From IMG/VR virus record IMGVR_UViG_638341196_000006: a stretch of DNA of 19,782 bases. One strand, given 5' to 3'. A program made the translations under genes and the position numbers. Shown here piece by piece: positions 10,705 to 11,300 of this stretch (positions are counted from its first letter, which is position 1; every line of letters begins with the position of its first letter). The notes under the pieces were generated by a model. It was not told the origin of the DNA. It did not search any database and worked only from the letters and a program-made list of their open reading frames with translations. Source of the stretch: a virus. Its lineage: Duplodnaviria > Heunggongvirae > Uroviricota > Caudoviricetes.

Positions 10705-11049
10705 TTAAGCCCCTGTGTGATGGTTGACTTCTTTTTCCAGCGCCTTATTAACAAAGGCGTTCAGTGATAAATCTTCTTCCATCGCCATTTCAGCGACCCG
10801 ACGATGCAGTTCTGGATCAAGTCTGACGTTAAACACACCTTTAAACGGGGTATCAGGCTCCTTTCCATCCTCCACACAAGACTGTAAATACAGCTCAACC
10901 GATGTCTTAAACTCCTGTTCCAGTTCAGCTAATGTAGAAGCCTCATAAGTTACCAGGTCTCGAATAAACGCCAGTTTTCCGTACAGGATATTATTTTCAA
11001 AATCTGGTTCTACTGTACCTAAATATCCTTTATATTTTAGATGATTCAT
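10705..11049 (-). CDS. hicB: HicB-family antitoxin (N-terminal HicB fold plus C-terminal ribbon-helix-helix)
   Basis: 114 aa; C-terminal ...LDPELHRRVAEMAMEEDLSLNAFVNKALEKEV is RHH-like; 4-bp overlap with the upstream toxin gene. Confidence 0.8.
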   Translation of the reverse strand: MNHLKYKGYLGTVEPDFENNILYGKLAFIRDLVTYEASTLAELEQEFKTSVELYLQSCVEDGKEPDTPFKGVFNVRLDPELHRRVAEMAMEEDLSLNAFVNKALEKEVNHHTGA

Positions 11050-11300
11050 AATACCCCAGCCTCTTTCAGATTCTGTTTAATCGCTTTCAGCGTTCCACCT
11101 TTAATATAACTTTCTGGATGTGGGCGATGCATTAATATGGTGTGGTTGATTTCAGCATTGAAAAACCGCACTCTTGAGCCCTGCATTTCCTTTTTGACAT
11201 ATCCCAGAGAGGAAAACAAAACGACCAACTCATCCCATTCAAACGTTTTTTTACTGTTTAAAAACTTTTCCAGTAGCTTATCTGCTTTCCCCATACCCAC
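11046..11300 (-). CDS. hicA: HicA-family toxin (mRNA interferase); start is GTG at 11300 or ATG at 11294
   Basis: ...QGSRVRFFNAEINHTILMHRPHPESYIKGGTLKAIKQNLKEAGVL shows the HicA GS[HR]...H.PH...GTL signature; toxin-first order typical of hicAB. Confidence 0.8.
   Translation of the reverse strand: MGMGKADKLLEKFLNSKKTFEWDELVVLFSSLGYVKKEMQGSRVRFFNAEINHTILMHRPHPESYIKGGTLKAIKQNLKEAGVL

Follow-up and report, generated by a model that had tools for sequence, protein, structure and literature searches.

A HicAB toxin–antitoxin cassette between the repressor and antirepressor genes of a lambdoid prophage

A toxin–antitoxin (TA) gene pair of the hicAB type lies in a 19,782-nucleotide stretch of viral DNA (IMG/VR record IMGVR_UViG_638341196_000006; the whole stretch is hereafter called the window), which is almost certainly a heavily insertion sequence (IS)-disrupted lambdoid prophage remnant from Shigella. 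An earlier note, made from the letters of the DNA, had placed such a pair at positions 10705 to 11300, and two minus-strand open reading frames (ORFs) were found exactly there (Table 1). Their identification as hicA and hicB was borne out by Pfam, PHROG and fold matches. The upstream ORF matches Pfam HicA_toxin (PF07927; E = 1.2e-11, 45 bits versus a cut-off of 27) and the downstream ORF matches Pfam HicB (PF05534; E = 7.4e-20, 71 bits versus a cut-off of 21). In addition, PHROG 8887 ("toxin") spans all of HicA (E = 9e-35) and PHROG 9151 ("HicB-like antitoxin") spans all of HicB (E = 1.5e-50), such that by the Pfam and PHROG scores the identity of the pair is well past chance. The hicA ORF has an alternative GTG start at 11300, from which it would occupy 11046–11300 and encode 84 amino acids (aa). 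However, the conserved start is ATG 11294, as the stretch with the GTG is missing from the IncX4 plasmid copy described below and RefSeq annotates 249 nucleotides (nt), and so the right-hand limit given in the earlier note needs a small correction.

Single-sequence searches with HicA and HicB against Protein Data Bank (PDB) sequences returned no useful match, and a profile search against the PDB gave marginal matches to HicA (E = 0.3) and to ribbon–helix–helix (RHH) proteins. Because these searches were too weak, the folds of the two proteins were settled by fold search. The AlphaFold2 (AF2) model of HicA (predicted local distance difference test score, pLDDT, 90) has the HicA structures 1whz and 6g26_E/F as its top PDB folds, each with probability 1.00. 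It consists of a helix at residues 20–29, strands at 32–36, 41–46 and 51–56 and a helix at 66–79, and about 20 additional N-terminal residues form an added helix. The AF2 model of HicB (pLDDT 88) comprises four to five strands and a helix, followed by helices at residues 79–91 and 96–111, and its top PDB folds are B. pseudomallei HicB (6g26_A/B, 6g1n), TTHA0281 and Y. pestis HicB3, with 2dsy and 4p78_A among the matched HicB structures. Residues 72–112 of HicB match RHH/Arc/CopG-type repressors. With hicA first and a HicB that ends in an RHH domain, the pair is class 4 in the scheme of Gerdes, a class with the order hicA–hicB in which the RHH HicB autorepresses at palindromic operators (PMC10865869).

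The stop codon of hicA and the start codon of hicB overlap by four nucleotides as ATGA (11046–11049), and no hairpin was found at this junction (fold of -4.6 kcal/mol, z -0.07). The gene order, together with a single upstream promoter, is a bicistronic operon layout. Ratios of nonsynonymous to synonymous substitution rates (dN/dS) are 0.03–0.06 for hicA and hicB at synonymous divergences (dS) of 0.17–0.58, values that point to strong purifying selection on both genes.

Transcription signals and plasmid copies of the cassette

Comparisons were made with sister loci in the Stx1c prophage of strain 48 (L001), JNEC-KY204 (L004), E. coli E2855 (L005), 2015C-3121 (L006), the Stx2a Oslovirus phage Lyz12581Vzw (L007) and eight Shigella chromosomes or contigs (L008–L015), and with plasmids. 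A four-copy alignment held the window, the Stx1c prophage, the IncX4 plasmid pEc_18HAE25 (from PLSDB) and one IncI2 plasmid. Note that pEc_18HAE25 stands in for pJIE143 (JN194214) and that the IncX4 plasmid p14EC007a, which is cited below for its measured properties, is not itself the aligned copy.

Homology to the plasmids runs from the -35 hexamer to the hicB stop codon, and the flanks are unrelated. The IncX4 match is 90.6% identical at the nucleotide level over 669 bp. Of 5426 complete E. coli genomes, 462 contained the region by megablast; the matches fell in 502 places, 466 of them on plasmids. The cassette was also matched by 792 PLSDB plasmid records, 780 of them conjugative, and such plasmid-borne copies abound in Escherichia, Salmonella, Klebsiella and Shigella. 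HicA of the window is identical to the IncX4 plasmid HicA at 79 of 82 residues (96%), and HicB differs from its IncX4 counterpart at three positions and in the last few residues, with the RHH segment identical. Synonymous divergence between the prophage and IncX4 copies is 0.25–0.31 (about 9% nucleotide divergence), and the overall dS range of 0.25–0.37 indicates that the prophage and plasmid lineages split long ago. These comparisons mark hicAB as a self-contained, discrete cassette that extends from promoter to terminator and is mobile between conjugative plasmids and the prophage slot. Separately, many IncI2 plasmids of about 60 kb carry an unannotated relic of about 260 bp, some 88% identical to this hicB and the end of hicA (matching window positions 10808–11068).

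The hicAB promoter matches the sigma-70 consensus at 12 of 12 hexamer positions, and an identical 12/12 promoter is present in the sister prophage of JNEC-KY204. Neither hexamer differs among the prophage, IncX4 and IncI2 copies. A 20-bp imperfect palindrome, TGTAACTA-TAAT-TAGTTGCA, lies across the -10 box and the probable transcription start site and occurs once in the window, where 0.07 occurrences are expected by chance. All 20 bp are invariant in the four otherwise diverged copies, whereas the promoter spacer and the 5′ untranslated region vary. This pattern suggests that the palindrome is the operator to which HicB would bind.

The earlier note had also described a bidirectional terminator at 10593–10620 that insulates hicAB from cI. 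We could confirm that the structure exists: its 13-nt arms (10589–10601 and 10608–10620) are 100% complementary, enclose a 6-nt loop and are bordered by an A-run and a T-run, and its folding energy is -23.2 kcal/mol for the plus strand (z -3.7) and -25.0 kcal/mol for the minus strand (z -3.8). It lies 85 nt 3′ of hicB and directly after the stop codon of a plus-strand ORF of 56 aa. An automatic terminator scan passed over it because the A and T tracts pair and thereby lengthen the stem. In JNEC-KY204, the corresponding spot has a non-homologous hairpin that is preceded by an A-run and followed by a short T-run. The element at 10589–10620 would be expected to insulate the convergent cI and hicAB units from each other. 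At the hicB stop codon of the IncI2 and IncX4 copies, a G/C-rich hairpin can be read by eye, with a T-run after it. At the corresponding place in the window, where the plasmid homology ends, the scan reported a weak terminator-like hairpin that looks like a decayed form of the cassette's own terminator. If the prophage cassette has indeed lost its own terminator in this way, termination would fall to the palindrome at 10589–10620.

Table 1. Positions of the hicAB cassette, its signals and neighbouring features in the window
Feature	Positions	Strand	Description
hicA toxin gene	11046–11294	minus	82 aa from ATG 11294; Pfam HicA_toxin
hicB antitoxin gene	10705–11049	minus	114 aa; N-terminal partial RNase-H-like domain and C-terminal RHH
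Mobile cassette extent	10696–11360	minus	common to IncX4 (90.6% nt) and IncI2 (88.3% nt) plasmids; from blastn limits and alignment
hicAB promoter	11330–11358	minus	TTGACA (11358–11353), 17-nt spacer, TATAAT (11335–11330)
Putative HicB operator	11322–11341	.	20-bp imperfect palindrome
Bidirectional intrinsic terminator	10589–10620	.	common to the convergent cI/56-aa ORF unit and the hicAB unit
Weak hairpin over hicB stop codon	10697–10714	minus	terminator-like site in scan
cI-type repressor gene, LexA family	9579–10298	plus	239 aa; HTH_3 and Peptidase_S24 (Pfam)
cro-like HTH gene, divergent from cI	9234–9473	minus	Pfam HTH_3; sister-prophage annotation
56-aa ORF	10420–10590	plus	downstream of and co-oriented with cI; PHROG 28875, E = 1e-30
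Right edge of variable slot	11389–11475	plus	last ~65 nt and terminator of the sister phages' Panacea-pair operon
isrK sRNA	11959–12035	plus	Rfam RF01394, 61.6 bits (gathering 50)
C4 antisense RNA	12060–12147	plus	Rfam RF01695, 78.6 bits (gathering 45)
Rha-family regulator/antirepressor gene	12202–12786	plus	ORF opens at 12043; Pfam Phage_pRha, E = 3.5e-26; PHROG 995 and antirepressor families

Prophage surroundings and the variable cargo slot

The placement of the pair between cI and an antirepressor module also agrees with the earlier note, with cI at 9579–10298, hicAB at 10705–11294 and the isrK/C4/Rha module beginning at 11959. To the left of the cassette, from far to near, are a DEAD-box helicase gene, an ORF in the cII position and the cro-like gene, each on the minus strand, and then cI and the 56-aa ORF on the plus strand. 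A 720-nt "LexA family protein" gene is annotated at the position of cI in the Stx1c prophage and in JNEC-KY204. The 56-aa ORF, annotated as a hypothetical protein in the Stx1c prophage and in 2015C-3121, rather than hicAB, holds the rex-like position in which a gene is co-transcribed with cI. In sister prophages, a "transmembrane anchored protein" of about 53 aa is found in place of this ORF.

To the right, a promoter-like site (11924–11952) sits just upstream of isrK, and the Rha ORF is followed by an ORF6N gene and then by an antirepressor gene with ORF6N and P22_AR_C domains. The isrK/C4/Rha arrangement is characteristic of immI-type modules for antirepressor control, and its layout resembles the P1 c4-icd-ant and Gifsy-1 isrK arrangements. 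A Pfam Phage_ASH match within the first 53 codons of the ORF at 12043–12786 overlaps the C4 RNA gene, and it may be that the long Ash-Rha proteins of related genomes have been annotated too far at the N terminus, across RNA genes. The ORF6N/P22_AR_C gene (14523–15305) is overlapped at its 5′ end by an Rfam match to sRNA-Xcc1 (14525–14608, plus strand; 78.1 bits, gathering 53). When the cro–cI intergenic region was compared with the window, no convincing cI-operator-like repeats were detected near hicAB or upstream of Rha, the sole candidate being a 12/14 match at 11574, and pL/OL was therefore not located in the window.

The interval between cI and the antirepressor genes is a cargo slot, since sister prophages with the same flanks differ in what it contains. 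In E. coli E2855 and phage Lyz12581Vzw, it holds a type II restriction–modification (R-M) system, composed of an Eco57I-like methylase and a BsuBI/PstI endonuclease, together with a Panacea-domain pair. JNEC-KY204 has a small membrane protein, hicAB and a Panacea pair, and 2015C-3121, which carries a different cI allele, has a membrane protein, an SDH Clp-fold protease, the 56-aa ORF and hicAB. The Stx1c prophage and the window have the 56-aa ORF and hicAB. In every hicAB-bearing sister prophage compared, hicAB is directed toward cI. On the right-hand side, homology to JNEC-KY204, E2855 and Lyz12581Vzw restarts at 11389, and the Panacea pair itself is absent from the window, leaving a 3′ stub in which a hairpin (11450–11469) followed by a T-run constitutes the terminator of the Panacea operon. 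At the junction, two blocks of homology to JNEC-KY204 overlap by 16 nt (11389–11404). We also considered a 23-nt inverted repeat (10352–10374/11376–11398, 74% complementary) as the ends of the cargo, but it is probably a chance occurrence because the homology limits (10642, 10696, 11360 and 11389–11404) are different. A megablast search of sequenced phages returned none with the exact cassette; its sole match was to the flank on the right, which is present in Stx2a Oslovirus phages.

The prophage in the window is related to Oslovirus-type Stx phages, and the exact HicB sequence carries the record name "MULTISPECIES [Shigella]". In the eight Shigella loci, hicA is full length and 100% identical at the nucleotide level throughout; cI is broken in three of them (L009, L010 and L014) and the Rha gene likewise in three (L008, L011 and L014). 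These loci hold the same prophage remnant with varied patterns of decay and a truncated helicase gene. In the window, a complete IS1 (768 bp, 12782–13549) gives the Rha ORF its stop codon, which amounts to a 3′ truncation, and abuts a 5′-truncated ORF6N gene (13616–14323). The IS1 flanks have no matching target duplication, which suggests an IS1-adjacent deletion. Positions 1–6826 are occupied by nested IS elements, in which IS3-family elements are each split by an IS30-type transposase gene (271–1584, minus strand; 4772–5923, plus strand). These bracket an early-left fragment with an ORF resembling single-stranded DNA-binding protein (SSB; 2612–3091), an exonuclease gene (3091–3780) and a truncated RecT gene (3777–4256), all on the minus strand, an orientation that indicates IS-mediated inversion relative to the sister prophages. 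At the other end (15586–18985, plus strand), the immunity region has an intact lambda-type integrase gene (357 aa) nearby, with an ipaH E3-ligase effector gene (587 aa) after it. Between the antirepressor genes and int, little is left of the early-left operon.

Weighing the possible roles of the cassette

We consider it probable (about 70%) that the locus is an intact, self-contained type II HicAB cassette of the HicA^O^B subfamily, carried as a moron in the prophage cargo slot and kept there by selfish persistence. The consensus sigma-70 promoter would yield a bicistronic hicA–hicB mRNA, in which translation of hicB would be coupled to that of hicA via the ATGA overlap. HicB dimers seated on the 20-bp palindrome over the -10 box would repress the operon, and the N-terminal domain of HicB would cap HicA and thereby keep the RNase silent. 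HicA that is set free would cleave RNA and stop growth, if the RNase chemistry of the family holds for this protein. Transcripts of hicAB would end at the palindromic terminator, which would also be the end of the convergent cI transcript, so that neither unit would run antisense into the other. The biological effect would then most likely be persistence and competition of the carrier DNA segment itself, for which no benefit to the host is required.

The gene identities and folds, the limits of the cassette, the sequences of its promoter, palindrome and terminator, the selection against amino-acid change and the variability of the slot on which this reading draws were computed here, and the RNase chemistry, operator binding, terminator insulation and biological role are inferred. 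In contrast, toxicity, neutralisation, equal mRNA levels and a weak competitive benefit come from the literature on IncX4 plasmid p14EC007a. HicA of that plasmid is toxic in E. coli K-12 and is fully neutralised by HicB, the hicA and hicB mRNA levels are similar, and the plasmid has a slight competitive edge over its hicAB deletion derivative, reaching 3:1 at generation 80 (PMC11878559).

Two observations weigh against the favoured explanation. One concerns HicA itself, in which Arg41 (GSRVRF) stands opposite the catalytic His24 of B. pseudomallei HicA, albeit in a weak profile alignment (E = 0.3) in which the comparison protein was 4c26, an H24A mutant (GSAHHF). The biochemically studied HicAs all have the catalytic histidine at this place (His23/24/28/36), within a G-[S/G]-H motif where beta2 begins, and the characterised HicA RNase chemistry is therefore not simply transferable. 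The other concerns the eight Shigella loci. Their intact hicB was imposed by the look-up with the exact HicB sequence, the loci are near-clonal and the cassette is a small target for IS elements, and we have accordingly discounted the intactness of hicAB in them as evidence of selection.

The absence of the canonical histidine does not set the window apart. An exhaustive profile search recovered 1526 cluster representatives at E ≤ 1e-3, and among the best 147 of these, which represent the clade, 130 have Arg at the catalytic-His position, 9 have Ala, 5 have Gly and 1 has His, with His56, Pro58 and His59 (H[R/K]PHP) near-invariant. HicA of coliphage mEp234 has Gly at the position and a HEPHP motif. 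In the HicA model, residue 41 opens beta2 and His56 closes the adjacent antiparallel beta3, and it is plausible from this predicted strand pairing that the clade uses a relocated catalytic histidine (His56/His59 in HxPHP). The canonical histidine is a trait of the characterised members and not of the Pfam definition.

These data bear directly on the proposal that hicAB is an inactive relic, a decaying passenger in a dead prophage whose HicA lost catalysis through the His-to-Arg change. The alignment of Arg41 with His24 and the heavy degradation of the surrounding prophage would fit such a history. However, the substitution by Arg, Ala or Gly is clade-wide and not local, and the HxPHP residues are retained. 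The aligned IncX4 HicA, 96% identical, carries the same GSR motif and the IncX4 HicA of p14EC007a is toxic, which together make a local loss of function unlikely. The low dN/dS and the intact promoter, putative operator and ORFs also argue for a living cassette, and we regard the relic proposal as very improbable. We would give still less credence to hicAB as a regulator of the prophage switch, in which convergent transcription or cleavage of phage mRNAs by HicA would tune expression of cI or the antirepressor. It is true that hicAB runs toward the cI operon and away from the isrK/C4/Rha module, but the convergent units are parted by a strong bidirectional terminator (and by a non-homologous one in JNEC-KY204), the cassette works on plasmids that lack any phage context, it adjoins two different cI alleles (those of the Stx1c prophage and 2015C-3121), and the search described above gave no convincing cI-operator-like repeats near it.

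Two further proposals assign the cassette a role for the host. Anti-addiction by chromosomal TA homologues is reportedly an established concept, for which Saavedra De Bast et al. 2008 is named. Applied here, it would mean that chromosomal HicB neutralises and co-represses the HicA of incoming IncX4 and IncI2 plasmids, and so releases the host from the post-segregational or competitive effects of these plasmids, or the converse. In the RHH segment of HicB and in the putative 20-bp operator, the window matches the plasmid copies exactly, HicA differs at just 3 of 82 residues, and the plasmid copies are abundant in enterobacteria. Nevertheless, the argument is purely inferential, the measured effect of the plasmid module is small, and the dS values bespeak an old split between the lineages, so that we judge this role improbable. 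Somewhat less doubtful, yet still unlikely, is abortive-infection or superinfection defence, whereby infection by another phage would free HicA, by shutting off host transcription or in another way, RNA would decay and the infection would be aborted, to the protection of lysogens. The earlier note had put forward phage defence or prophage retention as the role of the pair, and nothing found in the window supports either. The position in the slot makes phage defence a reasonable hypothesis: R-M and Panacea-domain pairs occupy it in the sister prophages, and the constitutive-looking promoter of hicAB would keep the pair expressed in a lysogen. On the basis of gene neighbourhoods, Gerdes makes the case for a defence role of HicA domains (PMC10865869), and an E. 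coli protein of 472 aa whose C-terminal domain is HicA has been validated as anti-phage (PMC13092281), although the latter is a single-gene system with an architecture other than that of two-gene hicAB. Against defence, a search of PADLOC-DB v2 returned no match for HicA or HicB at E ≤ 0.01. HicAB2 of the P. putida P1 prophage is a potent TA system that affects neither phage resistance nor prophage stability (PMC12894663), and deletion of hicAB from the IncI2 plasmid p45 left resistance to lytic coliphages unchanged (PMC11878559). In the same study, p45 HicB was stable for 12 h in lysate, which speaks against activation by antitoxin decay. For HicAB of Adephagia (gp90/91), no target phage was found, as far as is related second-hand in PMC11594946. 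The bolder composite claim, that the prophage copy has a host-level role, either abortive infection or the disarming by HicB of HicA from IncX4 and IncI2 mcr-1 plasmids, and that its HicA clade acts through a relocated His56/His59, also strikes us as rather doubtful.

Comparison with known systems

There is little new biology at this locus, given that RefSeq already names HicA and HicB and a nearly identical plasmid cassette has been tested experimentally. A more distant hicA–hicB pair beside cI, in the place of rexAB, has been available since 2007 from the lambdoid phages mEp234 and HK106 (GenBank EF120460 and EF120461). What differs from known phage hicAB is the convergent orientation, the promoter of its own and the neighbouring C4/isrK-type antirepressor module. 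The locus nonetheless illustrates neatly how a TA cassette, complete from promoter to terminator, moves between conjugative plasmids and a prophage slot that also takes R-M and Panacea genes. Chromosomal copies in Shigella and E. coli could matter if they cross-neutralise HicAB of the IncX4 and IncI2 plasmids that confer colistin resistance. A HicA clade that is toxic without the canonical catalytic histidine is a second modest point of interest.

The closest likeness is to the IncX4 type, which Lin et al. 2025 named HicA^O^B for its overlapping ORFs without an internal terminator, as distinct from the HicA^T^B of IncI2 (PMC11878559). The gene order, the ATGA-type overlap, the lack of an internal terminator, the promoter hexamers and the 20-bp palindrome are all shared, and by sequence the window pair belongs to the HicA^O^B subfamily. 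Bustamante & Iredell 2019 is reportedly a further reference for IncX4 HicA^O^B (pJIE143). The differences are that the IncX4 cassette resides on a conjugative plasmid whereas the pair described here resides in a chromosomal prophage remnant, that HicB of the window is shorter by one residue and has another C-terminal tail, and that the cassette's own terminator appears to have decayed and to have been replaced by the shared palindromic terminator 85 nt downstream.

Among phages, the coliphages mEp234, HK106 and mEp506 likewise have hicA–hicB directly beside cI, where lambda has rexAB. Their HicA is from the same broad clade, with HxPHP and without the canonical histidine. However, the proteins, which were found by tblastn, are only 35% (HicA) and 43% (HicB) identical to those of the window, and their HicB is 152 aa long. 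Moreover, in these phages hicAB has the orientation of cI, lies upstream of Timm and oL/pL, and can ride the cI transcript, in contrast to the convergent pair with its own promoter in the window. At the founding hic locus of H. influenzae (HicB, Q9LA69), the antitoxin shares 61% identity across 95% of its length and has the same size and domain layout, although the organism and the context are different. Both folds are common to the window pair and the HicAB systems of E. coli K-12, B. pseudomallei, Y. pestis (HicA3B3) and S. pneumoniae, and the RHH type of HicB is shared with those of B. pseudomallei, Y. pestis and S. pneumoniae. Unlike these characterised systems, HicA of the window has about 20 extra N-terminal residues and Arg41 at the catalytic-His position.

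Lambda rexAB is co-transcribed with cI and constitutes a membrane-depolarising abortive-infection system. Despite the absence of homology, hicAB of the window is like rexAB in being accessory, lysogen-expressed cargo next to the repressor gene, but it differs in being a TA of the RNase type and in lying on the strand opposite to cI, with its own promoter and a terminator in between. Finally, PaaR2-PaaA2-ParE2, a TA system in a cryptic O157:H7 lambdoid prophage's immunity region (PMC8138530), has no homology to hicAB of the window and yet is alike in being TA cargo in a lambdoid immunity region.

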